Shown: in pieces, positions 30 to 20,564 of the stretch | Layout of the letters: each line of letters starts with the position of its first letter | How positions within the stretch are numbered: the stretch's first letter is position 1 | Source: Bacteroidota bacterium | GTDB lineage: Bacteria; Bacteroidota; Ignavibacteria; UBA10030 | Assembly: GCA_035506075.1 (NCBI GenBank) | Contig: DATJQB010000290.1 | Span: forward strand, 50-64,049 | Direction of reading: 5' to 3' | DNA: 64,000 nucleotides | Notes under the pieces: model-generated | Seen by the model: only the letters and a program-made list of their open reading frames with translations | Told to the model about the DNA's origin: nothing | Databases searched by the model: none | Made by a program: the position numbers and the translations under genes

Positions 30-2594
30 TTATCGTAATATCGAGAATTGACCGATCTTCTTGTCGCCCGTTGGTGATTCCACGATATAGAGGTAGAGCC
101 CGCTGGCACACTCGAGACCGTCTTTCGAGAACATGTCCCAGAATGTGCTTCCCTTGTTCGCATCGGACGAACTAAAGTAGATCACGTCGATAATCTGTCC
201 TGCCACGTCCGTGATGGTGATCTTGCATTGCGGGGGCAGATTGTAGAAGAGGAGCTTGTGATCGTACACGTTGGCCCTGTTGTCGTGCAACGCGGCCTTC
301 TTGTACGGGTTCGGCCGAACACTGACATTGCCAACCTGTCCAGCCGGAGCAAGAGCCGAGTACACAATCTGCACGGCACCAATGCCCTTCAGGCCGGTGG
401 ATGTTGCAGCGGCATCTGTTGTTGATGTCTTGCCGTAGTTGGCGTTCAGGGTCGCAAACGGGAAGGTGAGCTGCCACAGACCTGATGCACCGTTCCTGTT
501 CGTGGAGTGTGTCTCGATACGGTTCGTTGTTTCGCCGTCCGGACCTGTGTAGGTTCCCTCTTTGTATGCAGCCACGTAGTACCAATACGAGAACCCAAGC
601 ACCACATCCTTGTCCTCATATCTGTAGTTGTAACCGCTGGTCTGCGCCAACGGCAGCGTTGAAAGTTGAGCCTTCGGAATCACGGCAAGCAAATCCCATG
701 TGCCCCACGTGTCGGGCTGGTAGGAACCTTGTGATGCCGTGGCGTTGACCTGTCCAAACGCATCAAACTTCGGATTGACGGGCTTCTTCAGGTTGTCGGG
801 AACCGAACCAGGAGTCATGTTTTCCTGGTACCGGTCGGCATCCCGCATACCGTCTGTCAGGAAGTACTTCTTGACGTACTGGGACGACTTGTAGATCTTG
901 TATCCCGCAAAGTCGGGATCCGTCTCCGCCCGTTTGTCCCACTCAACTGCGACTGACTTCGTCAGAGTGTTGGTGACTTTCATATCAGGAAGCGGCGGGA
1001 GAACCGGGATCTTGTAATTCTGAGCATACGCCCAGCGTGCTGCACGGACCGCCTTTTGTATTCCTTCGAGACGGTATCCGGCAACCGTCGCCATGACGAT
1101 CGTCATCGACTCGCCGGGTGCAAGGCTGAACGGCCCGACACCTGCAAACATGTCGCCGTTGAAGTTTTCAGTATTGCTGGCGCCCTTTGTCCACCTGCCC
1201 CATCCGGTTGGATAGAGGGTGGTGGCATCTGCGTGGCCGTCTTCATACGACGGTGCATCGAAGATGTTGCTGGACTTGAAGTCGCCATCCGGTCGTGTTG
1301 CACCAGCGGTCTTCGGTACGAATGTCGTCACATCGCCCGCTGTGCCGCCCGAGAAGAAGTTTGTATTCGGGTTCAGGTTGAACTTGGTCGCATCCGTCTG
1401 CCGGGTCTTGCCGCCATCGACATACCAGACACCCGTGGCGGTCAGGAACTGTGCGTTCGGTGTGCCGGAGCCCCAGATCTGGGCCTGGCTTCCACCGGAA
1501 ACATACCATCCGCGCTGGACACCAACACCGACCGGATCGGTTCCGAAGATTGTCTTCTTCGTCGCATTGCCGACAACCGTCGTTGACTTGTCCGTCGGAA
1601 GTCCTCCCTGCTTCGCATCGATAATCACGAAGCCGGACCAGACATCGGTGTACCATTTGCGGGCACCGGTATTGAAGCCGATGTCGACGTTTCCGGGACT
1701 CGGATTCAACACGGACGCACTCGGGAGCATTGCGCTGAACGCCCAGGGATATCCATTGGGATCGGGATCATCAATCCACGCTGCCTGCGCAACGAGAGGC
1801 GTCAGGGTGACGTCGTTGTTGTTACGAACGCCGCCGCCATAGCTGCCAACGGACATGTAGCGCTCTTCGGAGAAGCTGAATGCAAGAGCCTTGATCGTGT
1901 TGTTCACTTTTTCGGCAACACCGTCCATGTTCATGTCCAGATTGCCGGTGTTCTTGAATTCAAGCTCGAGAATGACGAAGTCATTCAGGTTGTCCCAGTT
2001 CGGACCCGCAAAGCCGTGTGCGCGGATCTTCACGTCGATACCCACGTTTGTCGGCCACGCTGCTTCGTACACCACGTGCTGCCGGCGATTGCCATCGACC
2101 CAGGCGGGTTCAAGGGCGTAGTGCCGGGAGTTGTCCGTTGCTCCTGCCAGGGTCGGCATATACGTCAGCTGTGCATAGTTCGCACCGCCGCCGGAAGCAA
2201 AGTAACTGGGATTTGTCTTACCACCGATTGTTGACGGGTTGAAGTTTGGATCGGGATCATAGACGCCAGCCCATGCATTCTTGTACCAGTAGTTGGTATA
2301 GAACCATGCGGCAGGCCAGTGTGTGCCGGGGGTCGACCAGGCACGGTCGAAGTTCCCCAGGCGGATAAAGTTGCGGTAGCCTAACGTTGTGTACGTTCCG
2401 GCATCGCTGTAGCTCGGTGTGAAGCTCATCGGCAGGAATGATTCCCATGCATCGCCCGCCTGGATCACACCACCACCCGGATAGTTGACAGTCGAGGTGG
2501 CGGTAATGAGCTGGCCGAACAACGCGCCTGGAGCGACAGCGAACAATAGAGCAAGAATTGCGATAAGCAACCCTTTTTGTCTTGTCATGTTCAT
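30..2594 (-). CDS. Secreted T9SS cargo protein (paralog A) with C-terminal Por/T9SS sorting domain; function unknown
   Basis: 854-aa ORF. N-terminal signal peptide MNMTRQKGLLIAILALLFAVAPGALFGQ. C-terminus ...GLYLYIVESPTGDKKIGQFSILR matches the TIGR04183-type T9SS sorting-domain pattern. The central GPFSLAPGESMTIV...DFAGYKIYKS block is shared with ORF 13658..15601. Lies 47 bp downstream of a TBDR gene. Confidence 0.7.
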   Translation of the reverse strand: MNMTRQKGLLIAILALLFAVAPGALFGQLITATSTVNYPGGGVIQAGDAWESFLPMSFTPSYSDAGTYTTLGYRNFIRLGNFDRAWSTPGTHWPAAWFYTNYWYKNAWAGVYDPDPNFNPSTIGGKTNPSYFASGGGANYAQLTYMPTLAGATDNSRHYALEPAWVDGNRRQHVVYEAAWPTNVGIDVKIRAHGFAGPNWDNLNDFVILELEFKNTGNLDMNMDGVAEKVNNTIKALAFSFSEERYMSVGSYGGGVRNNNDVTLTPLVAQAAWIDDPDPNGYPWAFSAMLPSASVLNPSPGNVDIGFNTGARKWYTDVWSGFVIIDAKQGGLPTDKSTTVVGNATKKTIFGTDPVGVGVQRGWYVSGGSQAQIWGSGTPNAQFLTATGVWYVDGGKTRQTDATKFNLNPNTNFFSGGTAGDVTTFVPKTAGATRPDGDFKSSNIFDAPSYEDGHADATTLYPTGWGRWTKGASNTENFNGDMFAGVGPFSLAPGESMTIVMATVAGYRLEGIQKAVRAARWAYAQNYKIPVLPPLPDMKVTNTLTKSVAVEWDKRAETDPDFAGYKIYKSSQYVKKYFLTDGMRDADRYQENMTPGSVPDNLKKPVNPKFDAFGQVNATASQGSYQPDTWGTWDLLAVIPKAQLSTLPLAQTSGYNYRYEDKDVVLGFSYWYYVAAYKEGTYTGPDGETTNRIETHSTNRNGASGLWQLTFPFATLNANYGKTSTTDAAATSTGLKGIGAVQIVYSALAPAGQVGNVSVRPNPYKKAALHDNRANVYDHKLLFYNLPPQCKITITDVAGQIIDVIYFSSSDANKGSTFWDMFSKDGLECASGLYLYIVESPTGDKKIGQFSILR

Positions 2595-5686: not shown

Positions 5687-6498
5687 GATGTTGCTCCTTG
5701 GATGTAGAAGTATATCAGTGAATTAATAACCGTTGTAGAATATAGAGAGAGGATCAAGAAAGACTGTAACGCACAATCGGTATTGCTGTGGATGATGCCG
5801 CTGATGCAGCGTAGCAACTATTCGGTCCCAGCACCTCCCTTCTTTGAATGCGTTGGGTTGGATTGGGGGTGAGATTCAGTTTCAGATTCGCGCACAACGG
5901 AAACGTTACCACAGCTTCTCACACCCTCACCATGCGGCAACACCACGGTGTGAATGGTACGATGGAATTCTTCAGGAAGAGAAGCTTTGAGTTCGCTGCC
6001 ACAACCCCGAAGGGCCCGCGTAGAGCGAGAGTTTCATTAATAAAACTCGGTTTCAGCGGGGGAAGTATAAAACATTTTGCCGGGAATGTCAAGACACGAC
6101 ACTCGACACTTCAAGATAGTACGGAAGGGATTCCTCCAAGGCAATGCGAATCCCCGAGATGTCTGCTTCCCGCGCCGGCACCGCAGCCAATGCGTGACTC
6201 TGCGACCGGTTTTGTGTAGATTCCTGCATCCGGACCGCGTACGCCAACTTCGTTTCAGGATGAAAACGGTGAACCGGCTTCTGCCTTCCGCACCAATTGC
6301 CCGCATTCAATGTCCCCGGGTGGTCGCGTTCACGTCCTCGATGAGTGTCCGTTTCGTCCCACGCACGTGCGTCCGTTGAAACGGATCACCGCACTCTATA
6401 ATAAAGAGGTCAACAACTCAAACCCATCCCCGCCCTGCTCCCGCACCGTGCTCATCCAGCTCCCCATACAACAAAAGGACTGCGGTCCGTCTCATTTC

Positions 6499-8919
6499 GT
6501 GCGATTCCGGAACATCATCGCCGCCGGATTGATGCTGGCCGTTTTTTCCTCCAACGCATCAGGACAAACGTACCGGCTGACCGGCTCCGTCCGCGACGCG
6601 TCAACGAACGAGCTTCTCCCCTTCGTCACGGTCTACGTACGAAATGCGCAACAGGGAACATCCACTGACGATCGGGGCGCCTTCACACTCCGGCTCAAAC
6701 CCGGCACCTACGAAATCCTTGCCAGCCTTGTCGGCTACAAGACTGAAACCTCCAACATCCAGCTGGGACATGATCTCCAGCGCCTCGACCTGAAACTGAC
6801 TCCAACCGATATTCTCCTCCAGGAAGTCACCGTCTATTCCGGCTCGGCAGAACAGGCGCCGCAGTCCGAGACGAGCGCACTGTCGCTCCAGGGGCGCAAG
6901 ATCGTGGAGACGACTACGGTTATCCCCGACGTGTTCCGGTCTGTGCAGACGCTCCCGGGAATTTCATCGGATAACGAGTTCAGCGCAAAGTTCAGCGTGC
7001 GCGGCGGAACGCCGGACGAAAATCTCGTCCTCGTCAACGGCGCCCAGGTCTATGAGCCGTTCCACGTCAAAGAAGCGCCAAACGCAAGCATCGGCATTTT
7101 TAATACGGATATGATGCGTAAAGTTACGTTGGTTACCGGCGGGTTCAGTGCGAAGTACGGCGATAGAATGAGCGCTGTGATGGATATTGAATACCGCGAC
7201 GGGAGCCGGGAGAAGCTCCAGGGCTCCGCCACCCTCAGCATGACCAACTTCGATCTTCTGCTCGAAGGACCGGTGAGCTCAAGCGGGTCCTTCATTGTCG
7301 GGGCACGCAAGAGTTACGTCGAGTATGCACTGTCGATGCTTGGCTTCGACAAATCGATTCGCCCATCCTTCTACGACGTGCAGGGTGTAGCCACCTGGTC
7401 TCTGACTCCCAGGGACAAGCTGCAGTTTGAATTCATTCACGCCGGCGACACGTTTACGCTCGAACCAGGCACATCCCTGGGCGGCCCCTCGATCTACAAC
7501 AGTCAGTACAAAGGAAAAGCCGCGCAGTTTCTCGAATCATCTTCTTCTTCCGAAGGAGAGGATGCTCATTACACGAGCAACCTTGTGGATGTCCAGTGCA
7601 CCGACGTTCTTTCGCCGACGATCTTCGTGAAAAGCGAACTCTCGTACTATCAGCAACTTGAGCACGAATTCAGTTACAATTCCAATCTCTTTGCCCGGGA
7701 TATTTCATCGACGGTGAATTACTTTTACCGTTCGGATCAGGAATATCTGTACTCAAACGATCTGACCATCCGCACCGTCGAGGCCAAGAGTGCTCTCGAG
7801 ATCCAGTTGACACCGTACTATGAACTCAACGCAGGGGGCAGCATCCAGTCGATCTTCTACAATGAACATCTCATCGACCGGCGCACGATCGACGAATCAA
7901 TGAACACGACGCACTATCCGGATACAACGCTCACACACCGGGTTGTTAATTCTGTTGACGCCGCGGACGAGACCATCGACGCGCAATCGTACAAGCTTGC
8001 CTTCTATGCCGAACAGGTGCTCCAGATCGGTGAACGGCTTCTTCTCAACCTGGGCGGGCGGCTTGATTATTTCGCGATCAACCGGGATCTGAACCTCAGC
8101 CCGCGCTTCAACCTGGCCTACCGCCTCGTTGATCAAACAACCCTGCGGGCCGCATGGGGCTTCTATTTTCAGTCGCCCATCTACCGCCAGCTGTCATACT
8201 CTTTTGCTTCAGATACGAACACGAAAGCCCAAAAGGCTGTTCACTCCATTCTTGGCATCGAACACGTCTTTCCCTTCAATCCATCGGTCGGCGCTTCGCT
8301 CACTGTGAAGCTCGAGGGGTTCACCAAACGTTATACAAACCTCATCTCGGCAGCACGAACGAGCAGCGGGCGCATCACCTACTCACGGAAAAATGACGCC
8401 GTCGGTTCTGCGCGCGGACTCGATCTCTACCTGGCCCTCAATCTCCCGCGGTTTTACGGCTGGATCAGCTATGGTCTGCTCGATGCACGCGAAGATCTCG
8501 TCCATGATGCGATCGGCGAATATCCGATGTTTACCGACCAACGGCACACGGCGTCTCTTGTCGGCGAATGGGATCTTGGAAACGGCTGGAGCTCCAACCT
8601 GCGCGTTCAATACGGAAGCGGCTATGCCTACACGCCGTCAGTGGCACAGTATGATGCGCAGAAGGGACAATGGGAGTGGGTTCAGGGAAGAACGAACAGC
8701 GCCACGCTTCCTCCGTACCGCCGCGTGGACACTCGTGTGGCAAGAGACTTCACAATTGCCGGCCTCGCGACATCGGCATTTCTCGACGTGAGCAACGTGC
8801 TGAACTTCACGAACATTCAATCGTACCGTTATCGATTTAACAGCAACGGCCTGCCCTATATAGAATCCGTCAAACTCTGGCCGATTCTCCCAACCCTTGG
8901 GATGTCAGTGAAATTCTGA
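6499..8919 (+). CDS. TonB-dependent outer-membrane receptor (CarboxypepD_reg N-domain)
   Basis: ORF-track frame 6310..8919. Likely GTG start near 6499, giving signal peptide MRFRNIIAAGLMLAVFSSNASGQ. Then a YRLTGSVRDASTNELLPFVTVYV...GTYEILASLVGY CarboxypepD_reg-like domain. C-terminal ...LGMSVKF ends in Phe. Divergent from the TBDR at 2642..5686. Confidence 0.8.
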   Translation: MRFRNIIAAGLMLAVFSSNASGQTYRLTGSVRDASTNELLPFVTVYVRNAQQGTSTDDRGAFTLRLKPGTYEILASLVGYKTETSNIQLGHDLQRLDLKLTPTDILLQEVTVYSGSAEQAPQSETSALSLQGRKIVETTTVIPDVFRSVQTLPGISSDNEFSAKFSVRGGTPDENLVLVNGAQVYEPFHVKEAPNASIGIFNTDMMRKVTLVTGGFSAKYGDRMSAVMDIEYRDGSREKLQGSATLSMTNFDLLLEGPVSSSGSFIVGARKSYVEYALSMLGFDKSIRPSFYDVQGVATWSLTPRDKLQFEFIHAGDTFTLEPGTSLGGPSIYNSQYKGKAAQFLESSSSSEGEDAHYTSNLVDVQCTDVLSPTIFVKSELSYYQQLEHEFSYNSNLFARDISSTVNYFYRSDQEYLYSNDLTIRTVEAKSALEIQLTPYYELNAGGSIQSIFYNEHLIDRRTIDESMNTTHYPDTTLTHRVVNSVDAADETIDAQSYKLAFYAEQVLQIGERLLLNLGGRLDYFAINRDLNLSPRFNLAYRLVDQTTLRAAWGFYFQSPIYRQLSYSFASDTNTKAQKAVHSILGIEHVFPFNPSVGASLTVKLEGFTKRYTNLISAARTSSGRITYSRKNDAVGSARGLDLYLALNLPRFYGWISYGLLDAREDLVHDAIGEYPMFTDQRHTASLVGEWDLGNGWSSNLRVQYGSGYAYTPSVAQYDAQKGQWEWVQGRTNSATLPPYRRVDTRVARDFTIAGLATSAFLDVSNVLNFTNIQSYRYRFNSNGLPYIESVKLWPILPTLGMSVKF

Positions 8920-9134: not shown

Positions 9135-10847
9135 ATGAAAGCCCACAAACTCTTCGTCCCTTTCGTCGCGTTGCTCTTCACAACTCCTCTGTTCGCGCAG
9201 GGAGATCTCCTGAGCGAGATTCACCGCGTCGGAGTGTATGATGTCAAGAGCAACGGATTCGTTCTGGATTCAGATCAGGGTGTCACCATCCACGCGGTTG
9301 CAGCAAGCGATCGTTACCATGGGGTCGGGACTTCCGCCTGGATTCTCGACAAGTCGACGCGCGCTGTCGTCTGGAAACTCTGGAATGCGAAAGAACATCG
9401 TCGCAGCAAAGGTCTTTCGGAGTATGACGATGTTGTCCAGCTCCCCAAAGGGGACTACGAAGTGTACTACGCCGCATATCCCGAGCCATCAGACAACGTT
9501 GAAAACTTCAGCGACTTTATGGATCTTCTCTCGAGCAAGATCTTCGATGGAAGGCGACGCGACCGCGACTATGATGAATTCTCCATCACTGTGCGCGGCC
9601 ACGGGAAACCCGTCGCGTCCGATGGAGTTGAACAATGGCAGGAGGGTTTGAAAAAGGATGCGCTCGTGTCGATGTCGGCCCTCTGGGACAATGAGTACGT
9701 GCAGCGCGGATTTGTACTTGAGAAACCCGCCGAGCTGACCGTCTATGCTCTCGGAGAAATCCTCGACGACAATCTCGACGATTACGGATGGATCATGAAC
9801 GCCAAAACCGGATCACGGGTATGGCAGATGGACGAGCGCACGATGAAGAACGCCGGCGGTGCGCGCAAGAACCGGATGGTGCGTGAGACTCTTCAACTCC
9901 CCGCCGGACAGTATGTCGCATACTTTGTGACGGACGGATCGCACTCGTACCGGTCGTGGAATGCCGCTCCGCCGTACGACCCGGCATTCTGGGGAATGAC
10001 AATCTGGGTCAAGGATGAAAGCCAGAAGAAATACGCGAAGACGTTTGATTTCAAGCCATCCGCTCCGAAGAACGTCCTTGTCGACCTCACACGATTGGGC
10101 GATCACGAAGTGCGGTCGAAGGCCTTCACGCTCAAGAATGGAATGGATGTTCACATCTACGCCATCGGCGAGGGGCGCGACCACGAGATGTCCGATTACG
10201 GCTGGATCGTCGATGCCACCACAAGGAAGAAAGTATGGAAGATGGAGTACGATCAAACCAGTCACGCCGGCGGCGACAAGAAGAACCGGATCGTTGACAA
10301 GGTTCTTCATCTCGACAAGGGAAGCTACGTCGTGCATTTCGTCACGGACGATTCCCATTCCTATCGTGACTGGAACTCGTCCCCCCCGTTCGATCCCGAG
10401 CACTGGGGGATCACCGTGAGCGCTGCAAGTGATCAGTTCAATCCTTCCGATGTGACTTCATACGAGGAGCGGGACAATCCTTCTGTGCTCGCGAGCATTC
10501 TTCGCGTGGGAGACGATGAGCGGCAACACAAGAAATTCTCTCTTGCGAAGACAAGCACTGTGCACATCTATTCAGTTGGCGAAGGGCGCGACGGTGAGAT
10601 GTACGATTACGCCTGGATCGAGGACGCGAACTCCGGAAGAACGGTCTGGAAGATGAAATACAGGATGACGGAACGGGCCGGCGGTGCATCAAAGAACCGG
10701 CTTTTCGACGGCACCATTTCTCTTCCCGCGGGCAGTTATATCGTCTACTACGAAACAGACGACTCTCATTCGTATGACGATTGGAACGATACACCGCCTG
10801 ATGATCCGGAAGCGTGGGGTGTTACGGTGTCACTCGAAAAGCAGTAG
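9135..10847 (+). CDS. Secreted protein composed of four tandem ~135-aa repeats of an unrecognised domain
   Basis: ORF-track frame 9066..10847. Start moved to MKAHKLFVPFVALLFTTPLFAQ (signal peptide). Four repeats each contain IYA/SVGEGRDxEMxDYGWIxDAxTxxxVWKMxY...AGGxxKNRxV...GSYVVxFVTDDSHSYxDWNxxPPxDPExWGxTV. The repeat is also visible at DNA level (gattacggatggatc / gattacggctggatc / gattacgcctggatc at ~9781, ~10195, ~10603). Confidence 0.7.
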   Translation: MKAHKLFVPFVALLFTTPLFAQGDLLSEIHRVGVYDVKSNGFVLDSDQGVTIHAVAASDRYHGVGTSAWILDKSTRAVVWKLWNAKEHRRSKGLSEYDDVVQLPKGDYEVYYAAYPEPSDNVENFSDFMDLLSSKIFDGRRRDRDYDEFSITVRGHGKPVASDGVEQWQEGLKKDALVSMSALWDNEYVQRGFVLEKPAELTVYALGEILDDNLDDYGWIMNAKTGSRVWQMDERTMKNAGGARKNRMVRETLQLPAGQYVAYFVTDGSHSYRSWNAAPPYDPAFWGMTIWVKDESQKKYAKTFDFKPSAPKNVLVDLTRLGDHEVRSKAFTLKNGMDVHIYAIGEGRDHEMSDYGWIVDATTRKKVWKMEYDQTSHAGGDKKNRIVDKVLHLDKGSYVVHFVTDDSHSYRDWNSSPPFDPEHWGITVSAASDQFNPSDVTSYEERDNPSVLASILRVGDDERQHKKFSLAKTSTVHIYSVGEGRDGEMYDYAWIEDANSGRTVWKMKYRMTERAGGASKNRLFDGTISLPAGSYIVYYETDDSHSYDDWNDTPPDDPEAWGVTVSLEKQ

Positions 10848-10895
10848 GATCGGCGGGGAGCGCAGGGAACCCCGGCGCTTGCATGGGAACCACGG

Positions 10896-10928
10896 AAGGC
10901 GGACGAAACGATGTCCGCCTTTTTTATT
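10896..10928. terminator. Bidirectional rho-independent terminator between convergent genes
   Basis: Stem aaggcggac / gtccgcctt with loop gaaacgat, followed by TTTTTATT on the + strand. An A-rich run precedes it, so it is also usable on the - strand. It sits in the 76-bp gap between the repeat-protein gene and the convergent dipeptidase gene. Confidence 0.55.
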
Positions 10929-12624
10929 TGCACACAGCTCTGAAGACCCTCATGAAGTTTTCCCCCAGAATCTTCCTGACGTCCTGTTTCGAATAACCCC
11001 GCTGGAGCAGGGCTTCGGTGATCGCCGGAAATTTCGAGACGTCTTCAAGACCCACGGGGGTTGTCTCGATACCGTCGAAATCGGATCCGAGCGCCACGTA
11101 ATCGATACCGACAAGATTCTTGATGTAATCGATGTGCTGAATGACATTTTCCAGGCGCGCCGTGCCGGAAGAAACGAGAAACGTCGGGTAGAACACGACA
11201 CCGATGACTCCGCCCCGCTGCGCTATCGTCCGGATCTGTGCGTCGGTCAGGTTCCTGTAGTGATTGCGCACGGCCGCAGCTCCTGAATGGGAGGCGATAA
11301 TGGGGTTCTTCGAGGTCGCGAATATATCTGTCACGGTCTGGGGGCCGACGTGCGACACATCGATGATCATGCCGAGCGAATCCATGGTGCGGATGACACT
11401 CTTCCCGAACTCATTCAATCCCCCGGCCACACCGGATGAAGCATCCTTCGCCGAGACAGCCCACGAGGTGCTGTTGTTCCAGGTGATCGTCATGACGCGC
11501 ACACCGGCACGATAGAACGCGCGCAGGTTGTCAAGGTTATCCTCGATGCTGTGCCCTCCCTCCACAACCACGATGCCCGCAATCTTGTTCTGGCGCGTCA
11601 GTGCGTCCACCGTGTCGGCAGACGTTGTCAGCTTCACATCGTTTGCGTTCCGCGCGACCTGGGCTTTCAGCGTATCGAGAAATTTCATGCTCGTTGCATA
11701 ATACGCCGGCGCGTATTTGGTGGGATCGATCCAGATGGATAAGATCTGCGCGTCCACGCCCCCATCCCTGAATCGCGGAATATCGGTCTGCGGATCTCCG
11801 TTCCTCACAACCACGTGGCGATCGGCAATCTGGTAGGTGAAGTTCGTCCCCGAGATCACTTCCATCACATCGTTATGGAGGTCGATCACGAACGCCCGGT
11901 CGTGCACAGTCTCAAGAAGAAAGTCCGCCTGAGCAGAATCGACGAACGCCACGGTTGCTGAATCCGGCTCGTAAATCAACGACGACGCAACGATGCGGCA
12001 CGAATCGATGCCGGAGGGCGAAGCAAGGTTCCACGAAATGCTTCTTCCCATGACGGACAGGGTGGTCAGTCCCGGCATTGCTCCCCCGTCGAGCTGCACC
12101 ATTTTCCGTGTCAATCGCTCTCCCCCCATCTCAATCGAGTAGAACAGCACGCCCGCGCTTCCCTTCGAAGTCCAATCGATTGTGTAACTTCCCTGCCGGA
12201 GGTCGAATTCTTTCGCGTCAAGGAGCTGGCCAAGGATGTTGTAGACCGTGATGCGCGCTCTGCCCGATCGGGAAATTGTAAACGGAATCTTCGTGGATGG
12301 GTTGAACGGGTTGGGGTAATTTTGTTCCAGGCTGAACGAGCGCGGAACATCTCCCGTCTCTGCAATGCCAACGACGGGAATGTTCACCTGCCACTGACCG
12401 AGCGTGTTTGTGGTCGTCGATGCGAGGAGAACTCCAGAGCGATCGTACACCTGGATGGCAGCCGAAGCAACCGGTGTTCCGCGGTGCTTGTCACGCGCCG
12501 TTCCGCGGAGGGTCTTTCCGCCTGCATACAGTCCGGCAACAAGAAAGAACGCCGCCAGGGCCGTGAGGCAAAGACGATGTGTGGTTCGAAGAGAAAGAGC
12601 GGGAAGCCCGATGAGAGTTGTCAT
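10924..12624 (-). CDS. Membrane (renal-type) dipeptidase, peptidase family M19, with N-terminal signal peptide, CarboxypepD_reg-like segment and an internal T9SS-sorting-domain-like segment
   Basis: ORF 10924..12669; start probably M16 (MTTLIGLPALSL...LVAGLYAGG signal). The C-terminal ~380 aa carry M19 hallmarks (VIDLHNDV..., HSIEDNLDNLRAFYRAGVRVMTITWN, DVSHVGPQT, ASHSGAAAV, GSDFDGIE). Residues ~110-190 read SLEQNYPNPFNPSTKIPFTIS...ITVYNILGQLLD...GSYTIDW...GVLFYSIEMGGERLTRKMVQL, which is the canonical T9SS sorting-domain pattern, here placed N-terminally. Confidence 0.8.
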   Translation of the reverse strand: MTTLIGLPALSLRTTHRLCLTALAAFFLVAGLYAGGKTLRGTARDKHRGTPVASAAIQVYDRSGVLLASTTTNTLGQWQVNIPVVGIAETGDVPRSFSLEQNYPNPFNPSTKIPFTISRSGRARITVYNILGQLLDAKEFDLRQGSYTIDWTSKGSAGVLFYSIEMGGERLTRKMVQLDGGAMPGLTTLSVMGRSISWNLASPSGIDSCRIVASSLIYEPDSATVAFVDSAQADFLLETVHDRAFVIDLHNDVMEVISGTNFTYQIADRHVVVRNGDPQTDIPRFRDGGVDAQILSIWIDPTKYAPAYYATSMKFLDTLKAQVARNANDVKLTTSADTVDALTRQNKIAGIVVVEGGHSIEDNLDNLRAFYRAGVRVMTITWNNSTSWAVSAKDASSGVAGGLNEFGKSVIRTMDSLGMIIDVSHVGPQTVTDIFATSKNPIIASHSGAAAVRNHYRNLTDAQIRTIAQRGGVIGVVFYPTFLVSSGTARLENVIQHIDYIKNLVGIDYVALGSDFDGIETTPVGLEDVSKFPAITEALLQRGYSKQDVRKILGENFMRVFRAVCK

Positions 12625-12686
12625 CCCACCGGGCTTCTGCGGTGTGTGCAAAACACTCTGACTGATCAATATACCTCAAAGACCGC

Positions 12687-13649
12687 TTAGAAACCGATTC
12701 CTATCGAGAGCTTTTGCACCGAAGGAAGGATCTTGAATTTTTCGAAGGAATAATCAAACCGGACATTTTGTCCAAGGAACTTGCTCGCGTTGACACCGAG
12801 CCCTGCTGCAAACGACTCATCGTCGTAGTTCATCTTCACACCGCCGCGGACTGCTAGGAGATCGTACAGGAGCAGCTCGCCGCCAACGGAGTAATGCTCG
12901 ACATTGTCGTTGGGATGGATCAGATCGGCAATGACGCGCAGCGTGTACCCGTCGGCCACGACGGGCTCCATCGAGAACGAGGCCCTGAAGGTGACGGGGA
13001 GCGGGACGCGCTGAAATCCCTTCGTCACATTGCCCTCGGAGTAATCCTGATAGTTCCCGTCGAACGGTGACATGTCGGCGCCGAAATTCTGTAGCGTCAT
13101 CGCCAGGTGTGAGCCGGCGAATCCCAGCGCATAGTTCGTGCCGATATCAAATGCAAGGGCGGAGGTTGAGTGATCGAAATACGACTCCCGGATGATCTTC
13201 GCCTGGGCACCCACGACCAGTTTCTCCGTGATGTGCCGTGCGAACGACAGTCCGAGCACCATGTTCTGGATTGAATACGTCTGACCCGTACCGTTTTCCT
13301 GCTCAATCGTCGTAATCTCCTCCTGGGAGCTGAATCCCGTCGCCTGCACACCGATCACACCAATGTCCCCCCAGCGAAACGCTGCGGAAAGCGAGACCAT
13401 GTCGATGGCGGCGAACCAGGGGACGTACGTGAAGGAGACGTCGGCTTTCTGAACTCCTTCCAGCCCGGCAACATTGGTATAAACCGCGGCGGCATTATCG
13501 ACGACAGACGCTGCAGCGTTCCCAAGCGCCGAGGCGCGGGGATCGAAACTGATCTTCAACAACTGTGCGCCGCTGGTGCCGACCTGCCCGAACTGCTGCG
13601 CGGCGACTGGAACGGTAACGAGAAGAAGAAAGAGAATTGTCTTTTTCAT
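12687..13649 (-). CDS. PorV/PorQ-family-like (FadL-like) outer-membrane beta-barrel protein
   Basis: ORF 12687..13766 trimmed to MKKTILFLLLVTVPVAAQQ (signal peptide); an ATG sits 8 bp after the stop of the upstream cargo gene. N-terminal ...LLKISFDPRASALGNAAASVVDNAAAVYTNVAGL resembles the PorV/PorQ/FadL signature. Alternating beta-strand pattern, C-terminal ...LSIGIGF. The family call comes from motif resemblance only. Confidence 0.5.
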   Translation of the reverse strand: MKKTILFLLLVTVPVAAQQFGQVGTSGAQLLKISFDPRASALGNAAASVVDNAAAVYTNVAGLEGVQKADVSFTYVPWFAAIDMVSLSAAFRWGDIGVIGVQATGFSSQEEITTIEQENGTGQTYSIQNMVLGLSFARHITEKLVVGAQAKIIRESYFDHSTSALAFDIGTNYALGFAGSHLAMTLQNFGADMSPFDGNYQDYSEGNVTKGFQRVPLPVTFRASFSMEPVVADGYTLRVIADLIHPNDNVEHYSVGGELLLYDLLAVRGGVKMNYDDESFAAGLGVNASKFLGQNVRFDYSFEKFKILPSVQKLSIGIGF

Positions 13650-13657
13650 GTGGCACC

Positions 13658-15601
13658 TCAGCGCATGATGACAAATTTGCCCGTGTGGGTCCCGACAGAG
13701 GACTCCACAACGTAGATGTACAGCCCACTGACGGCTTCCTGGTTGTTCCTGGTCGTCAGATCCCACTCGGCAACTCCGGTGAAATCACCGGTGATCTTCA
13801 CATCGCGGCTCTGGTAGACAACATCGCCGCTGTGGATCGTCTTGACGAGGTCGCCGGCAAGTGTGAAGATCGAGATCTTCGCATCCGGCGGGAGGTTGAT
13901 GAAGCGGATCCTGTTCACCCATGGATTTGTATCAACCGGATTGGGGTTGTTGTACCTGCTCGACCCCAGGAACGGATTCGGAACGACCTTGATTCCCGAT
14001 GTTGTCGAGGCGGCAGGAGCGTTCGGCATGAAGACCTGCGTCGACTGGCGGCCGCGGCCAATCTGGTTTTCAAGCCTTCCGATGCCAAGCGTCGAATCGC
14101 CCGAGTCAAATGCGGTGACCGCGTACGTATAGATGAGTCCGTTCGGCGTGTTCTTGTCCTGGAACTCGTAGAGCGTGTCACTTCCCTGCACAACTGTTGA
14201 CGGGGGCCAGTTCTTCAGGAAGGGGCGGCCGTACCAAAGCGTGTCCTTCTTCTTGTCGATGGCGTTGTTCTTCACGTAGATTGCCAGTGTATCCCAGATC
14301 GCATTGCCTCCCGCGTCCTGCCGCGACGTGCGATACACGCCGTAGCCGGCAAAATCCTGCGCCAGCGTCAGTGGATCGCGGCTCGACTCGGCGTTTTTTC
14401 TCCACCGAATTGAAAGCGTCGGCTGTCCGCCGGAAGTAACCGGAACAACGTTGAAGACCGGCACATCCGGTGCCGCCGGGGCGCGCTGGTAGTTGCCGTC
14501 AAACATCGATTGTGCCACCAGGGAGTTCTTGATAATCCCCTGAAGCCCCGGTCCGATGACCCAGGCGACGACAATATGAATTGAGTCACCGGCATTGAGC
14601 GTGTATGGTCCGACACCGAAAATGATCCTGTAATCACGGATCGTTGTCATGTTCTCCGTGATGGTTCCCTTTGCAACGAACTCATATTGTGCCTGCGACG
14701 TAAGCGGTTCGAAATTCCGATACGACGGGGTTGCCATAGTTGGCTTTCCCGTGTACTTGCCGGTGAAATGTACGCTGTCACAATACAGCATCCGGAAGCC
14801 GATGTATCCCGGCGAACGCAGAACGCCCGTCACAGGATCAGGGTTGCCCGTATCGTCGCCCACAACGCTCGGGCTGTCAGAATCGTAGATGTAGGCAAGC
14901 TTGTTCGTGGAATCGTAACCCGCCAGGTCATCGGTATCCCACAGCGTGGATGGTGTGCTTGTTCCCAGGAACCCGGACACGTCTGCATCCTGGCGGAACG
15001 CGACATAGATGCCGGTCAGTTTTTTCTCCGCATCGTCAATCACGCCGTTCTTGTTCCGGTCGTACGGAACATACTTGATCCAGTAATCGCCGATGATGAA
15101 ATCTTCGTTGTACGATTGATCCCACACGTACGTCCGCTCGGTTACTTCCACGCCGAGGTTGACGTGCACACCCGACGGACTTGCAGGGTCGATATCGGTG
15201 TAGCGCGTGTACGTATCTTCTGCCGAGAGCGATCCCTCGGCGGCGTGTTTGACGTGGATTGAATCGAGCGGGCGGAAATGATTGTTCTCTCCCGACGACA
15301 TGTAGCCGAGTGAATCCGCGATGCCGCCGATCCAGATCGACTGCAGCCAGCCGTACAGGTTACCGCTGCCTCCCGGCCATTCGAAATTGGGTTCTTCATA
15401 GTTGCGGTCGCCGTAGAACCCGTAGTTTGTAATCTGTGTCCAGAGCCTTCCCATCTTGTGGCTGAATCCCTTGGCGGGAATATCCGTGACCGAAGAGGTT
15501 TTCATGGGAAGCTTCTCGCGGACTTTCGGCACATCCTGCGCCCACGCCACGGTGAGAAGGAACATGCTTGCAAGGAAGATGCGTATGAGAGTTGTTTTCA
15601 T
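13658..15601 (-). CDS. Secreted T9SS cargo protein (paralog B) with C-terminal T9SS sorting domain
   Basis: 647 aa. Signal peptide MKTTLIRIFLASMFLLTVAWAQD. C-terminus ...AVSGLYIYVVESSVGTHTGKFVIMR follows the T9SS sorting-domain pattern. The internal GPYTLNAGDSIHIVVAWV...DFAGYGVYRTS block is homologous to ORF 30..2594. Starts 7 bp after the TBDR stop. Confidence 0.7.
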   Translation of the reverse strand: MKTTLIRIFLASMFLLTVAWAQDVPKVREKLPMKTSSVTDIPAKGFSHKMGRLWTQITNYGFYGDRNYEEPNFEWPGGSGNLYGWLQSIWIGGIADSLGYMSSGENNHFRPLDSIHVKHAAEGSLSAEDTYTRYTDIDPASPSGVHVNLGVEVTERTYVWDQSYNEDFIIGDYWIKYVPYDRNKNGVIDDAEKKLTGIYVAFRQDADVSGFLGTSTPSTLWDTDDLAGYDSTNKLAYIYDSDSPSVVGDDTGNPDPVTGVLRSPGYIGFRMLYCDSVHFTGKYTGKPTMATPSYRNFEPLTSQAQYEFVAKGTITENMTTIRDYRIIFGVGPYTLNAGDSIHIVVAWVIGPGLQGIIKNSLVAQSMFDGNYQRAPAAPDVPVFNVVPVTSGGQPTLSIRWRKNAESSRDPLTLAQDFAGYGVYRTSRQDAGGNAIWDTLAIYVKNNAIDKKKDTLWYGRPFLKNWPPSTVVQGSDTLYEFQDKNTPNGLIYTYAVTAFDSGDSTLGIGRLENQIGRGRQSTQVFMPNAPAASTTSGIKVVPNPFLGSSRYNNPNPVDTNPWVNRIRFINLPPDAKISIFTLAGDLVKTIHSGDVVYQSRDVKITGDFTGVAEWDLTTRNNQEAVSGLYIYVVESSVGTHTGKFVIMR

Positions 15602-15610
15602 GGCGTCACC

Positions 15611-18364
15611 TTAAAATTGGAGCTGCAACCCGAGCCGGTACACGCGGGGAGGCGTGTAGGCCTGGGGATCGTTGTAGGGACCGGTCGGGTTACCCGTGGC
15701 TTCGTATTCAACAAGACCTTCACGTCCATCGGAGATGTAGGAAATGTTCCTGGTGTTCAGCAGGTTCTTGACCTCTGCGAGCACCGAGAATTCAATCTCA
15801 CCAACCGTAAAGGATTTCCGCGCACGCATATCCACGTTGCTTGCCCACGGAAGCCGGGCGTCGTTGCGAAGGACAAACAGCGGAAACGCATCGCGGGTGT
15901 TCGATGAATACGGATAGCCGGAGTGGGCGACGACCACAAAATCGACCTCGGCATCGCCGATGAGGTCGTGAATCTTTCCCGTCGACGTCAGGAGCAGGTT
16001 GCCGTTGATTCTCCAGCGCACATCCCAGTCGAGCGGATCGAGGCGACGCGGAACAATTTCACCGTTCGATCTGAACACAGACGACGAACGGCCGTTTGCG
16101 AACGCGTAGCTCACGTTGATCATCCCGCCGATTCCACGGGTTGCCATCGTCTCGAGCGTCATTTCCAATCCGCGTACGTTCGCATAATCCATGTTCGTGT
16201 ATGCCTGGTACGAATCGGGGGAACCCGTGATTACGAAGTCGGTGGCCCCGATGAGGTTGGTGATGTCTTTGAAATAGAGCGTTGTGTTCATCCTGAGAAA
16301 ATCGGAGAACATGTGATCCCAGCCGAGCTCGTACGATACGGTCTTCTCCGGCAGCAATCTCGGGTTGCCGAGATCTACGTTTGTCGTGTAGCGGAAATTC
16401 AGAGCGCTGTTTTCATAGAGGAAGCGAAGATCCGGACGCTGGAAGAAGTGTCCATAATAGAAATGAATCTTGTCCCTCTCGGTAATTGGATGTGAAATGC
16501 CGATGCGGGGGCTGATCTGCCACCGGGCGGGAACCTTGTCGGACGTCGTCAGACCCAGGGCATCCTTGTGGCTCGGCAGTGTGGTAAGATCGGCGGGATA
16601 GAGCACGTCCCCCGTCAAACCGTTTGGATTATAGTAATCGAAGCGGATGCCGGCATTCACAATAAAACCGTCGCGGACTTCGATCTTGTCCTGGAGATAT
16701 GCGGCAAAGTCCACCAGGTCCTGGTTCCACATATCAAAGCGCTGATTGGAAGGAGACTCGAATGTCACCTTCTCAACGCCCCCCTTGATGTAGTCTGTTT
16801 CGACCCCGGTCTTGAAGAGGTTAGAAGAGTTCAGCTGGTTTGAATAGTCGACGCGCAGGTTGGTTGTGCGTGAGATCTGATTCAGATACCATCCTTCATC
16901 GCCGGTGTAGTACCAGTAACCGTCGGTCAAGAGGTGGCTGTAGTAGCCCCCAATGCCGCCATTGAGTTGCCAGTGAAGTTCGTCCGTCGTGCTGCCGTCG
17001 AGATTCCTGTCGTCGACATCGCGGACGATCTCACGGAAGTTCGTCCAGAACTGTGACAATTTGATGTCGATGAACGATTGATTGTTGATCGTCTGGTTGA
17101 TCGAGAGACCGATGTTGTAGCTTTTGTTGATCGGGAGTGAAATGTGATTCTGCATTCCCGCCTGATAGATGTTCTGCACACTCTTGTACCACAGGCCGTC
17201 GACTGCATATCGTGCCGAGTCGGGATTCTTCGCGTTGTGGTAGTTTTGTGGATTGGTGACGAAGATGAACTGTTGCAGCGTCTTGACGCCGTTCGAGGTA
17301 ACGAGCTGCTGGAAGAGATCCGACTGGTATCCTTCGCTCAGCGGTCCATACTTCGCGGAGGAGTGATAGTAGGAATTCGTCTGGTCCCAGGAATACAAGC
17401 CGCTGAGTGTGACGCGGGTATTCGGAGTCACCGCCCGCATCTTGAGCTGGTAGGATTCCCTGTGAAAATCCTCATGTGGAAGAAAATCGCGGTTCTGCAG
17501 CGCAACGTCCGTTGAACCGTTCAGATAGAAGTTGATTCCCCCCATGGTAACGGAAGGAGCGCTGATATATGCTTCGTAGTCTTTCCAGTCCGGCTGACCG
17601 GTGCCGTACGCGAAGGGCGTCCACTGCATCTTCGCCCACGGAAAATCCGAGGTGCGGACGCGGAGCTTAGCGCCGAACCTGTTCTGATCCCGCGTGATTG
17701 TGTTGACGATGCCCGATTGCGCATTGCCGTACTCCGCCTCAAACCCGCCCGTCGTTACCTGGATCTCGGAGACGCTGAACTCGGGAAGATTGGCTGAGAA
17801 GCCGGCCGTTGTTGTTCCGCTGTAGCTGTTGATGGCGCTCTTGATCGCCATGCCGTCAACCAGGAACAGCGACTCGTTGAAGCGGCCGCCGCGGAAATGA
17901 CTTCCGTTCACGCCGGCCTGCATGAAGACCACCTCTCTGAAATCGTCGACCGGCAGAGCGTTGATCGCTTCGGCTTCAACGATGTGCTTCGTGGATGTCA
18001 GGTCTGCCTGAATCGGAGGCCTTGTCGCCACAACGACAACCTCGCCGAGCTGGACATCAGCCGCCTGCAGCGGGAAATCGATTGTCGTGGTCATGTCGAG
18101 CATGACCCTGATGTTCGAGATGGTCTTTGGTGCAAAGCCAATCATCGACGCGCGCAGGGTATAAGTCCCGACGGGCACGTTGATAATGAAGTAGTTGCCG
18201 TCGACATCGGAAGCCGTTCCATAGGTGGTACCAACAATCTGGATGTTCACCATCGGGAGCGGCTGGTGAGTGGCGGCATCAAAGACGCGACCAGCGATTT
18301 TTCCGGTCGTCCCCGCCAATGCGAGCTGGGACGCGAGAAGAAAGAAGCAAAGGAGCCTTTTCAT
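15611..18364 (-). CDS. TonB-dependent outer-membrane receptor (CarboxypepD_reg N-domain)
   Basis: 917 aa. Signal MKRLLCFFLLASQLALAGTTG, then KIAGRVFDAATHQPLPMVNIQIVGTTYGTASDVDGNYFIINVPVGTYTLRASMIGF. Plug/barrel length and C-terminal ...RLGLQLQF. Confidence 0.85.
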   Translation of the reverse strand: MKRLLCFFLLASQLALAGTTGKIAGRVFDAATHQPLPMVNIQIVGTTYGTASDVDGNYFIINVPVGTYTLRASMIGFAPKTISNIRVMLDMTTTIDFPLQAADVQLGEVVVVATRPPIQADLTSTKHIVEAEAINALPVDDFREVVFMQAGVNGSHFRGGRFNESLFLVDGMAIKSAINSYSGTTTAGFSANLPEFSVSEIQVTTGGFEAEYGNAQSGIVNTITRDQNRFGAKLRVRTSDFPWAKMQWTPFAYGTGQPDWKDYEAYISAPSVTMGGINFYLNGSTDVALQNRDFLPHEDFHRESYQLKMRAVTPNTRVTLSGLYSWDQTNSYYHSSAKYGPLSEGYQSDLFQQLVTSNGVKTLQQFIFVTNPQNYHNAKNPDSARYAVDGLWYKSVQNIYQAGMQNHISLPINKSYNIGLSINQTINNQSFIDIKLSQFWTNFREIVRDVDDRNLDGSTTDELHWQLNGGIGGYYSHLLTDGYWYYTGDEGWYLNQISRTTNLRVDYSNQLNSSNLFKTGVETDYIKGGVEKVTFESPSNQRFDMWNQDLVDFAAYLQDKIEVRDGFIVNAGIRFDYYNPNGLTGDVLYPADLTTLPSHKDALGLTTSDKVPARWQISPRIGISHPITERDKIHFYYGHFFQRPDLRFLYENSALNFRYTTNVDLGNPRLLPEKTVSYELGWDHMFSDFLRMNTTLYFKDITNLIGATDFVITGSPDSYQAYTNMDYANVRGLEMTLETMATRGIGGMINVSYAFANGRSSSVFRSNGEIVPRRLDPLDWDVRWRINGNLLLTSTGKIHDLIGDAEVDFVVVAHSGYPYSSNTRDAFPLFVLRNDARLPWASNVDMRARKSFTVGEIEFSVLAEVKNLLNTRNISYISDGREGLVEYEATGNPTGPYNDPQAYTPPRVYRLGLQLQF

Positions 18365-20396: not shown

Positions 20397-20564
20397 CAGT
20401 AACCTCTGTTCGTTCAACAAGAATACTCTTACTTCTTTCAACGCCGGCGGCGGAGGGCTGGTTCCTCGAACCGATGCAAAGGAGCCCGCGCACCCGGAAT
20501 TCACAACAATATACCGAATATTGTCCCCAGAGAAAACCCGCGATCCTGTGAAACGGCACGGAGC

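Follow-up and report, generated by a model that had tools for sequence, protein, structure and literature searches.

T9SS cargo prediction, and most mechanistic thinking about this pathway, assumes a sorting domain (CTD) that is C-terminal and cleaved. How, then, is a sorting domain to be understood when it lies inside an enzyme? The gene shown above raises this question, as the M19 dipeptidase that it encodes belongs to a family that is a natural and strongly conserved exception: a near-canonical type A CTD is locked within another domain. No description of this architecture was found in the literature searched, a statement that holds within that library only.

The dipeptidase gene and its catalytic domain

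The gene occupies positions 10924..12624 on the (-) strand of the window (the whole 64-kb stretch of DNA analysed) and encodes 566 amino acids plus the stop when counted from the first ATG; an alternative TTG start extends the open reading frame to 10924..12669 (-). An identical protein, HTY37655.1, is deposited as 'membrane dipeptidase [Bacteroidota bacterium]', and the sequence is on record from two contigs. Immediately past the stop codon, between convergent genes, lies a hairpin with a 12-bp stem (10894..10923, no strand assigned). Because the hairpin and its T-run were called on the + strand, the terminator is shown for the convergent gene; we infer that it may end the dipeptidase transcript as well.

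The catalytic domain spans aa 240-566 (10927..11907, (-)) and was assigned using Pfam, Foldseek, and residue alignment. Peptidase_M19 (PF01244) matches aa 240-562 with an E value of 7.5e-102 over profile positions 2-318 of 319, and comparison with 3id7, 1itq, and 3lu2 gives TM (target) scores of 0.78-0.95 and rmsd values of 1.5-2.5 Å. Residues H250, D252, E355, H425, H446, R457, and D515, found in the HxD, EGGH, SH, SHS, RN, and DxDG motifs, align with those of Sco3058, where we take them to correspond to H20/D22/E123/H191/H212/R223/D320. All seven of these metal- and catalytic-site residues are invariant across 116 sequences, and the protein contains an intact binuclear-zinc, renal-type M19 dipeptidase with a complete active site. 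It shares the TIM-barrel fold, the metal and catalytic residues, and 30-32% identity with Sco3058, human DPEP1, and GliJ. In contrast, these known M19 dipeptidases lack the 240-aa N-terminal module of the family described here.

The nearest M19-only proteins are at most 48% identical, and other M19 lineages bear AMIN, SH3_3 (3xSH3_3), DUF2231, or membrane modules N-terminally. Among the 150 nearest 50%-identity representatives, extensions of ~100-200 aa consist of AMIN, SH3_3, DUF2231, or unassigned modules, and no uninterrupted signal peptide-CarboxypepD_reg-M19 ancestor was found. A NYPNPFNP-type HMM detected no canonical C-terminal CTD on any of these 150 representatives, which gives no indication that T9SS cargo commonly includes M19 enzymes.

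The protein begins with a signal-peptide-like segment (aa 1-34; 12523..12624, (-)), recognized by inspection of the sequence and by alignment. An Arg-containing n-region precedes a hydrophobic stretch, LCLTALAAFFLVAGLYA, with an h-region of 17 residues and an A|G site; the equivalent site is A/S|Q in many homologues. AF2 predicts a helix at aa 12-30. From these features, we infer that the dipeptidase is probably exported via the Sec pathway.

The internal CTD-like domain and its host sandwich

The segment at aa 100-179 (12088..12327, (-); EQNYPNPFNPST...TRKMVQLD) is homologous to the type A sorting domain of the T9SS. The original prediction had identified a sorting domain from a quoted peptide, which maps to nt 12088-12327, and the identification is confirmed by profile searches. 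Pfam places Por_Secre_tail (PF18962) at aa 103-176 with 29.6 bits, above its cut-off of 27. The NCBIfam model TIGR04183 reaches 41.7 bits (cut-off 23) and matches 29 of 30 diverse family members. An HMM built from 134 ordinary C-terminal CTDs gives 82.9 bits for the internal segment, a value that is inflated because those CTDs were chosen by their similarity to it. The only solved structure matched by the sequence of the domain is a CTD chain, 8glj_D. The domain is present in all 121 family members tested (35-91 bits), always with at least 254 residues downstream. In the dipeptidase of the window it ends at aa 179 of 566, leaving 387 residues C-terminal to it, and its location is therefore not terminal.

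The corresponding point in ordinary CTDs is the end of the protein. In 135 of 147 ordinary CTD matches from the fetched FCB-group loci, the stop codon falls exactly one residue past the equivalent of aa 178. An end-to-end CTD alignment shows that ordinary CTDs terminate with KMxLLK and the stop, whereas the dipeptidase family reads KMxQLDGG and continues. Within ~1.3 Mb, 157 CTD matches were counted, comprising 148 C-terminal domains, eight of these dipeptidases, and one other protein. The control set consisted of 79 ordinary-CTD loci from the contig profile search with full-length alignment. That search was dominated by the NYPNPFNP pattern and returned a single true orthologue (L001).

Compared with type A CTDs (TIGR04183/PF18962), the internal copy has the same length and boundaries and shares the fold motifs QNYPNPFNPxTxI, G132, G145, G158-x-x-F-Y, and K-M. 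It also stands, by inspection, behind a signal-peptide-like N-terminus. A lysine near the C-terminus of CTDs contacts PorV (PMC10994853), and its aligned counterpart, K174, is 97% conserved in the dipeptidase family. In contrast, three positions that are almost fixed in ordinary CTDs are replaced: Asp179 takes the place of the terminal K/R seen in 98% of ordinary CTDs from these phyla, an invariant Gln that of the Leu at position -3 (90%), and Leu that of the Tyr of GVYFY (99%). In P. gingivalis, secretion requires residues of motif E (PMC10202324), which is the last strand of the CTD. The dipeptidase copy further differs from type A CTDs in that it is non-terminal, is nested within another domain, and is followed by a conserved Gly-rich turn and an extra strand. 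These last features belong to the post-CTD segment (aa 180-202; 12019..12087, (-)), in which the turn, GGxxxGLG, leads into the strand at aa 185-191 and then into a variable, low-confidence linker. On the N-terminal side, a variable linker (aa 85-99; 12328..12372, (-)) enters the domain; its residues 87-91 have AF2 pLDDT values below 50, and P94, F97, and L99 are also conserved upstream of ordinary CTDs.

The segments beyond these linkers resemble two halves of one CarboxypepD_reg-type beta-sandwich. The first half (aa 36-84; 12373..12519, (-)), assigned from PF13620 and the AF2 model, contains four strands (37-45, 56-60, 66-71, and 77-82; pLDDT 84-96). The native CarboxypepD_reg match covers aa 38-83 but only profile positions 1-46 of 82, and its score of 22.5 bits is below the cut-off of 32.3. 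The second half (aa 203-239; 11908..12018, (-)) emerged from in-silico splicing and hhalign. Upon excision of aa 85-202, the match grows from profile positions 1-46 to 1-72..82, and the score of the spliced window protein rises from 22.5 to 32.1 bits, just under the gathering score of 32.3. Spliced family members score 31-37 bits, with five of ten exceeding the gathering score. An hhalign comparison of spliced modules with the N-terminal domains of the window's TonB-dependent receptors covers both halves (probability 93.5%, E 2.3e-7). Because splicing restores the profile match and hhalign recovers the receptor domains, the dipeptidase is regarded as a split CarboxypepD_reg member. As judged from the profile matches and the secondary structure and confidence of the AF2 model, the CTD-like domain and its linkers (aa 85-202) are nested between the halves of the sandwich. 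The domain order given in the original prediction thus needs amendment: the M19 domain is C-terminal, as stated, but CarboxypepD_reg does not simply precede the CTD and is instead split around it. Four TonB-dependent receptors in the window, of the SusC-like kind found in Bacteroidota, have N-terminal domains that align with the host sandwich over its full length. The host sandwich differs from them in two ways: its 'VPPGTY' loop carries an insertion of 118 residues that interrupts it, and it heads a soluble enzyme, not a transporter.

Integrity, conservation, and age of the architecture

An artefact was among the explanations first offered for this arrangement, in which a sequencing or assembly frameshift masks a stop after the CTD and two genes exist in reality. 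The exact termination of ordinary CTDs at the equivalent point is what such an error would look like. However, more than 115 homologues, 45-78% identical and assembled independently in NCBI, JGI, ENA, and Logan data, have the same continuous reading frame. The sequence across the junction, KMxQLDGGxxxGLG, is conserved at the amino-acid level, the 37 residues that follow are in frame and supply the missing part of the split CarboxypepD_reg domain, and the identical protein comes from two contigs. The frameshift reading is effectively refuted by these comparisons, and its probability is next to nil.

The best 120 homologues listed have 64-100% query coverage and 50-78% identity; coverage is 93-100% in all but seven, five of which are shorter or truncated proteins. 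The CTD-like domain has a mean pairwise identity of 0.625, close to the 0.641 of the M19 domain; the values fall to 0.386 and 0.441 in the two sandwich halves and to 0.286 in the linker. These values indicate that the CTD-like domain is under purifying selection equal in strength to that on the catalytic domain. The genuine CTDs of syntenic orthologues are likewise more conserved than their passenger domains, so conservation alone is no proof of a novel function. Proteins as little as 45% identical, from about five 50%-identity clusters and including the deep-branching members P0122-P0124, have this architecture in common. Taken together, the alignments show a genuine, conserved family of dipeptidases with an internal CTD-like domain in Ignavibacteria-like bacteria.

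This distribution also bears on the proposal that a small T9SS cargo gene was recently fused to a dipeptidase gene. Superficially, aa 1-179 look like a miniature cargo protein, with a signal peptide, a small passenger, and a CTD. The putative passenger, however, is half a domain whose remaining half sits past the CTD, so that the CTD is nested and not joined end to end, and the architecture reaches down to 45% identity and into deep-branching members. A recent fusion is thereby refuted and has a very low probability; the insertion is taken instead to be ancient.

Genomic neighbourhood and possible roles of the internal domain

The dipeptidase is the last gene of a four-gene cassette. The first (15611..18364, (-)) encodes a TonB-dependent receptor of 917 aa that carries a CarboxypepD_reg domain at its N-terminus. 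It is followed by a 647-aa protein (13658..15601, (-)), which matches no Pfam family and whose C-terminal CTD-like domain is divergent and ends in GKFVIMR and the stop, and then, directly upstream of the dipeptidase, by a 321-aa outer-membrane barrel of the PorV/PorQ family (12687..13652, (-)). The barrel scores 154 bits against NF033709 (cut-off 90) but misses both equivalog cut-offs (T9SS_PorQ, 95 versus 220; T9SS_OM_PorV, 43 versus 250), and its scores identify it as a family member that is an orthologue of neither PorV nor PorQ. PDB sequence searches with the 647-aa protein and with the barrel were uninformative. No sprA/sov, porK-N, or porU gene was seen in the 64-kb window, in which this paralogue is the sole T9SS-related barrel. 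The cassette is conserved in six of 11 loci, with differing outer flanks, and the PorV/PorQ-family gene is syntenic in L082, L083, L085, L087, and L089. The tree groups all loci with the cassette into one clade, with the loci that lack it as the sister clade, so the adjacency represents one evolutionary event. Where no PorV/Q gene adjoins, the CTD-like domain shows the same degree of conservation.

Among the explanations first put forward, reuse of an Ig-like domain for another role best fits the nesting, the conservation, and the family-wide architecture. The preferred form of this reading, which is tentative and has somewhat less than an even chance of being correct, is that the CTD fold acts as a permanent handle for protein interaction, with barrels of the PorV/PorQ type as its probable targets. 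The CTD homologue is an insertion in the loop that joins strands four and five of a CarboxypepD_reg-type sandwich, of the type that heads the neighbouring TonB-dependent receptors. There, held on two flexible linkers, it keeps its fold motifs and near-C-terminal lysine but has no free C-terminus and has three near-invariant positions replaced. The fold may have been co-opted as a non-removable protein-protein handle instead of a cleavable export tag, for which PorV/PorQ-family outer-membrane barrels would be the likeliest partners. Such a handle would put the dipeptidase at the outer membrane beside the TonB-dependent uptake cassette, with docking either after T9SS-mediated export to the surface or from the periplasmic side.

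Two known systems offer parallels. PorU and PorZ bind PorV and PorQ through uncleaved CTDs (PMC10202324); there too the CTD fold is a permanent attachment and not a removable tag, as is suggested here, and a PorV/PorQ-family barrel gene adjoins the dipeptidase in one clade. The CTDs of PorU and PorZ, in contrast, are C-terminal and part of the T9SS machinery, whereas in the dipeptidase the attachment is a prediction and the neighbouring barrel is a paralogue below the PorV and PorQ equivalog scores. Type B cargo genes adjoin their cognate shuttle genes (PMC12618676), and the F. johnsoniae type B cargo with PorP/SprF similarly links a CTD protein genetically to a dedicated PorV-like barrel. That CTD is type B and not type A-like, and the pairing was demonstrated by experiment there and is read from sequence here. 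PorV grips CTDs by its extracellular loops inside the SprA pore (PMC10994853). Docking of the dipeptidase in this manner would therefore need export. To our knowledge, export has never been shown for a non-terminal CTD. The loss of the three CTD-typical residues (terminal K/R, L at -3, and Y of GVYFY) also speaks against a handle, as do the single origin of the cassette adjacency, set beside the equal conservation of the domain outside that clade, the periplasm being an easier rationale for a dipeptidase, and the AMIN or SH3_3 modules carried by other M19 lineages.

These last points are shared by a possible, though less than probable, alternative in which the domain has only a structural or intramolecular part in a periplasmic enzyme and no remaining link to T9SS or the PorV family. 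The fold would then have been recruited solely for its stable Ig-like sandwich and could serve as a spacer, help in dimerisation, form a lid, or bind a non-T9SS partner. The conserved CTD motifs dictate the fold and not translocon contacts (PMC10994853), and the altered positions, the equal conservation in the clade without an adjacent PorV/Q gene, and the unrelated N-terminal modules elsewhere (3xSH3_3, AMIN, DUF2231), which suggest a general modularity of exported M19 enzymes, are all consistent with a structural part; periplasmic dipeptide hydrolysis would be the simplest physiology. A mere spacer, however, would be expected to drift like the sandwich halves (0.39-0.44), yet identity in the domain is 0.625. 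Retention of K174 and of the pre-CTD P/F/L/Q motif as in real CTDs, persistence of the PorV/Q-containing cassette through the whole clade, and the low-confidence linkers on both sides, which in the model argue against tight packing onto the enzyme, also weigh against it.

At the other extreme, the domain could be a fully functional, non-terminal T9SS export signal, recognized by SprA/PorV, with the whole enzyme exported and then kept by the barrel or set free through a cut at the conserved D179|G180. The 83-bit score against the ordinary-CTD HMM, built from CTDs chosen by similarity to the internal domain, the PorV-contacting Lys, and the adjoining PorV/Q paralogue are in agreement with this, T9SS moves folded cargo CTD-first (PMC10994853), and D|G fits the PorU site motif T/E/D/N|G/A/S (PMC10202324). 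The earlier view that only the extreme C-terminus allows the signal to work is too strict, since P. gingivalis tolerates His-tags appended to the CTDs of PorU, PorZ, and PPAD but not replacement of the last residues (PMC11285876). Those extensions, however, were only 6-8 residues long, compared with 387 in the dipeptidase, and the final LLK is now QLD. PorU normally cuts N-terminal to the CTD, where cleavage would split the host sandwich; moreover, no T9SS core genes lie in the 64-kb window, and none of the 150 nearest M19 representatives carries a canonical C-terminal CTD by the NYPNPFNP-type HMM. Export in this full sense is doubtful. A looser version, in which the internal type A sorting domain still works through recognition by T9SS and/or a PorV/PorQ-type barrel, the enzyme is carried across or onto the outer membrane, and the domain stays as an anchor, is unlikely but less so.

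If the internal signal does work, the T9SS signal would depend on fold and not on position. The family allows a test of whether CTD recognition is position-independent and, with the preferred reading of a docking handle in mind, of whether CTD folds act as permanent docking modules beyond PorU and PorZ. Domain-based pipelines will label such proteins T9SS cargo or overlook the module, as the annotation 'membrane dipeptidase' does. Finally, the grouping of a TonB-dependent receptor, a CTD protein, and a PorV/Q barrel recurs across several FCB phyla and may represent an undescribed uptake or anchoring system.

Domain architecture and conservation of the dipeptidase

The dipeptidase ORF spans 10924–12669 of the minus strand, and reading from the first ATG, at 12624, yields a protein of 566 aa. 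In Pfam, Peptidase_M19 covers aa 240–562 (E 7.5e-102), Por_Secre_tail covers aa 103–176 (29.6 bits, gathering score 27), and CarboxypepD_reg is matched partially at aa 38–83, over profile positions 1–46 of 82 only and at 22.5 bits, below the 32.3 cut-off. The NCBIfam model TIGR04183, "T9SS type A sorting domain", is matched at 41.7 bits (cut-off 23). By this annotation, the original prediction of a T9SS-type domain and an M19 dipeptidase in one ORF is correct and well above chance, and the sorting-domain peptide that it quoted is the translation of nt 12088–12327. The identical protein HTY37655.1 is deposited only as "membrane dipeptidase".

In the AF2 model (mean pLDDT 89, pTM 0.76), structural superposition of the C-terminal domain gives target TM-scores of 0.78–0.95 against Sco3058, human DPEP1, GliJ and Lmo2462. 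A phmmer alignment to 3id7 places H250, D252, E355, H425, H446, R457 and D515 in conserved HxD, EGGH, SH, SHS, RN and DxDG motifs. These residues, the counterparts of the metal ligands and catalytic residues of Sco3058, are invariant in the 116-sequence family alignment. The M19 enzyme is intact. Other M19 lineages (library representatives P0174, P0223, P0236 and P0168) carry different N-terminal modules, namely three SH3_3, AMIN or a DUF2231 membrane domain, and exported M19 enzymes seem to have repeatedly acquired localisation modules.

Searched with the dipeptidase, a set of 5.8 billion clustered proteins gave 2348 matches. The best 120 of these are nearly all 530–590 aa long, are 50–78% identical, and cover 93–100% of the query in all but seven cases; most carry precomputed PF18962 and PF01244, and they derive from NCBI, JGI, ENA and Logan assemblies of Ignavibacteria/Bacteroidota MAGs. 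Whether orthologues keep both domains in one gene was a question raised at the outset, and the single-protein architecture is conserved in 121 of 121 family sequences: an HMM of ordinary CTDs (type A C-terminal sorting domains) detects the internal domain in each (35–91 bits, median 80), with at least 254 residues following it. TIGR04183 is matched by 29 of 30 diverse members. In a library of 1.84 billion proteins grouped at 50% identity, ~5 clusters (P0122–P0125 and P0214) hold the full architecture, which extends to 45% identity, and the next M19 relatives are ordinary 320–440-aa enzymes at ≤48% identity. These matches indicate a single conserved protein. The original prediction had also considered a frameshift or assembly artefact masking a stop, or a recent fusion. 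The amino-acid sequence directly downstream of the CTD-like domain is conserved, which leaves no hidden stop at that point, and the same architecture recurs across independent assemblies; the spread of the architecture over several divergent clusters argues against a recent fusion. Each of these two readings is highly improbable.

A CTD homologue within a split CarboxypepD_reg domain

The CTD-like domain (aa 100–179) was compared with ordinary CTDs from 79 control loci, a by-product of a profile scan of genome contigs. In 135 of 147 non-dipeptidase matches to aa 85–215, a stop codon falls exactly one residue past the equivalent of aa 178 (…KMxL[LIVM]K-stop), whereas at the same point in the dipeptidases (…KMxQLDGG…) reading continues. 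An HMM from 134 ordinary CTDs, scanned against all stop-to-stop ORFs in ~1.3 Mb, gave 157 matches: 148 at the extreme C-terminus, eight in dipeptidase orthologues and one in another protein. The dipeptidase family shares all the strongly conserved CTD positions, K174 (97%) among them. The family has L160 where ordinary CTDs have Y (99%), Q177 versus L (90%) and D179 versus a terminal K/R (98%), with further consistent departures at D136, W151 and R170; the C-terminal signature of the domain is altered. Among solved structures, the N-module profile matches only the CTD chain of 8GLJ (E 0.0036), a Lys of which pairs with K174 in the profile alignment. Conserved CTD motifs specify the fold, and the C-terminus-proximal lysine is the only near-invariant CTD residue touching the translocon (PMC10994853).

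Over 116 family sequences, mean pairwise identity is 0.625 in the CTD-like domain and 0.641 in the M19 domain, against 0.386 and 0.441 in the first and second halves of the CarboxypepD_reg sandwich and 0.286 in the post-CTD linker. In syntenic orthologues of the 647-aa protein and of a BNR protein, the genuine C-terminal CTDs likewise exceed the passenger regions in conservation; the CTD-like domain therefore behaves as a real CTD under constraint and not as a decaying relic. The internal homologue is under strong purifying selection.

When aa 85–202 were excised in silico from the window dipeptidase and nine homologues, nine of the ten spliced sequences matched CarboxypepD_reg or the related CarbopepD_reg_2 over both halves, reaching profile positions 1–67 to 1–82 of 82, or 1–74 of 88; the match of the exception, P0025, still covered positions 1–49 only. 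Full-length PF13620 scores after splicing were 31–37 bits, with five of ten passing the gathering score, and that of the window dipeptidase rose from 22.5 to 32.1 bits. In hhalign, the spliced-module profile aligns end to end with the N-terminal CarboxypepD_reg profile of four TonB-dependent receptors (TBDRs) of the window (probability 93.5%, E 2.3e-7, columns 4–84 versus 3–78 of 80), and the insertion junction falls in the "VPPGTY" loop of the TBDR domains. The profile evidence thus places a type A CTD homologue inside a split CarboxypepD_reg domain. The predicted internal CTD-like domain stands, but its placement after CarboxypepD_reg, between two domains, does not, as excision restores the match across both halves. 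The AF2 model has confident strands on either side of the insertion (aa 37–82 and 208–237, pLDDT ~84–97), a six-to-seven-strand sandwich at aa 111–177 with an extra strand at 185–191, and two low-confidence linkers (aa 87–91 and 194–203); we infer from this model that the two CarboxypepD_reg halves would pair in three dimensions. The component parts are known families, and neither the deposited annotation nor the literature searched describes the dipeptidase family or a type A CTD nested internally.

The sole internal CTD-like match outside the dipeptidases in the ~1.3 Mb scanned lies in comparison locus L040, in a lipoprotein-like plus-strand ORF from 14238 (352 aa from MKIYILL...). Its N-terminus resembles the CarboxypepD_reg first half, the second half is weakly matched by the 40 residues at its C-terminal end (profile positions 38–82, E 0.012), and a truncated CTD-like domain lies between these putative halves at aa ~181–257. 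This ORF may conceivably hold a second, dipeptidase-independent CTD nested in a split CarboxypepD_reg.

The four-gene cassette and possible roles of the CTD-like domain

Upstream of the dipeptidase lie three same-strand genes, for a 917-aa TBDR, a 647-aa protein and a 321-aa PorV/PorQ-family barrel, with gaps along the cassette of 9, 5 and 17–62 nt. The barrel clears the NF033709 cut-off (154 bits against 90) and stays under the equivalog cut-offs for PorV and for PorQ. The 647-aa protein (13658–15601, minus strand) has no Pfam family; its C-terminal domain (aa ~550–647, KVVPNPF...GKFVIMR-stop) is a CTD that is divergent and carries an insertion, with conservation among orthologues of 72–85% versus 56–74% in the rest of the protein. 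The best NCBIfam matches of this domain are weak and fall on the CTD regions of PorZ and of PorU; these are the two T9SS proteins in which retention of the CTD is known. The cassette recurs in loci L082, L083, L085, L087 and L089, where the outer flanks differ, and is absent from L081, L084, L086, L088 and L001. In a neighbour-joining tree, the cassette-bearing loci all fall in one clade and the remaining loci in its sister clade; the adjacency therefore arose once and has persisted over ~53% sequence divergence. Linkage of the dipeptidase to the PorV/Q-containing cassette is thus found in one clade only.

The partners known for CTD folds belong to the T9SS. The CTD fold of the dipeptidase would be kept as an interaction module and not as a removable tag, and we tentatively propose that it is a handle that docks the enzyme permanently on PorV/PorQ-type barrels. 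As precedents, retained CTDs hold PorU and PorZ on PorV or PorQ (PMC10202324), type B cargo genes adjoin their cognate shuttle genes (PMC12618676), and P. gingivalis tolerates short C-terminal extensions of CTDs (PMC11285876). Against docking, secretion depends on motif-E residues (PMC10202324), PorV grips CTDs by extracellular loops inside the translocon (PMC10994853), and the terminal K/R is lost in the dipeptidase domain. A dipeptidase is also most easily placed in the periplasm, and other M19 lineages bear AMIN or SH3_3 N-terminal modules; a T9SS-independent structural role, or one with another partner, is a rather less probable alternative to the docking handle. That the domain is a genuine export signal acting from an internal position is unlikely. 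Recognition by the T9SS from such a position would be of much greater interest.

Surrounding genes

The triad of TBDR, 647-aa-like protein (~630–650 aa, ending in a divergent CTD-like domain) and ~320-aa PorV/Q-like barrel (12687–18364, minus strand) is also seen, in weaker and partly incomplete form, in eight of the 79 unrelated loci of the FCB group (L004, L018, L029, L038, L042, L044, L064 and L066), at ≤10 kb from ordinary CTD genes. One possible role is uptake or anchoring, with a PorV/Q paralogue keeping a surface protein beside the TBDR.

Convergent with the dipeptidase is a gene for a 570-aa signal-peptide-like protein (9135–10844, plus strand) built of ~four ~130-aa internal repeats (…DYGWI.DA…VWKM…AGG..KNR…G.Y.V.Y.TDDSHSY..WN..PP.DP..WG.T…), which has no family match in Pfam or NCBIfam. 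L082 and L087 have a gene of like size and place (570–571 aa, no Pfam family). A strong hairpin at 10894–10923, with a GC-rich 12-bp stem and a T-run, lies exactly between the two convergent stops and may be a terminator for both genes. Within 30 kb there are four TBDRs headed by CarboxypepD_reg domains (2645–5686, 6310–8916, 15614–18364 and 26816–29680), and an S41 C-terminal processing peptidase (18765–20504) is found just upstream of the cassette. Positions 1–30000 look dedicated to nutrient, possibly peptide, uptake.
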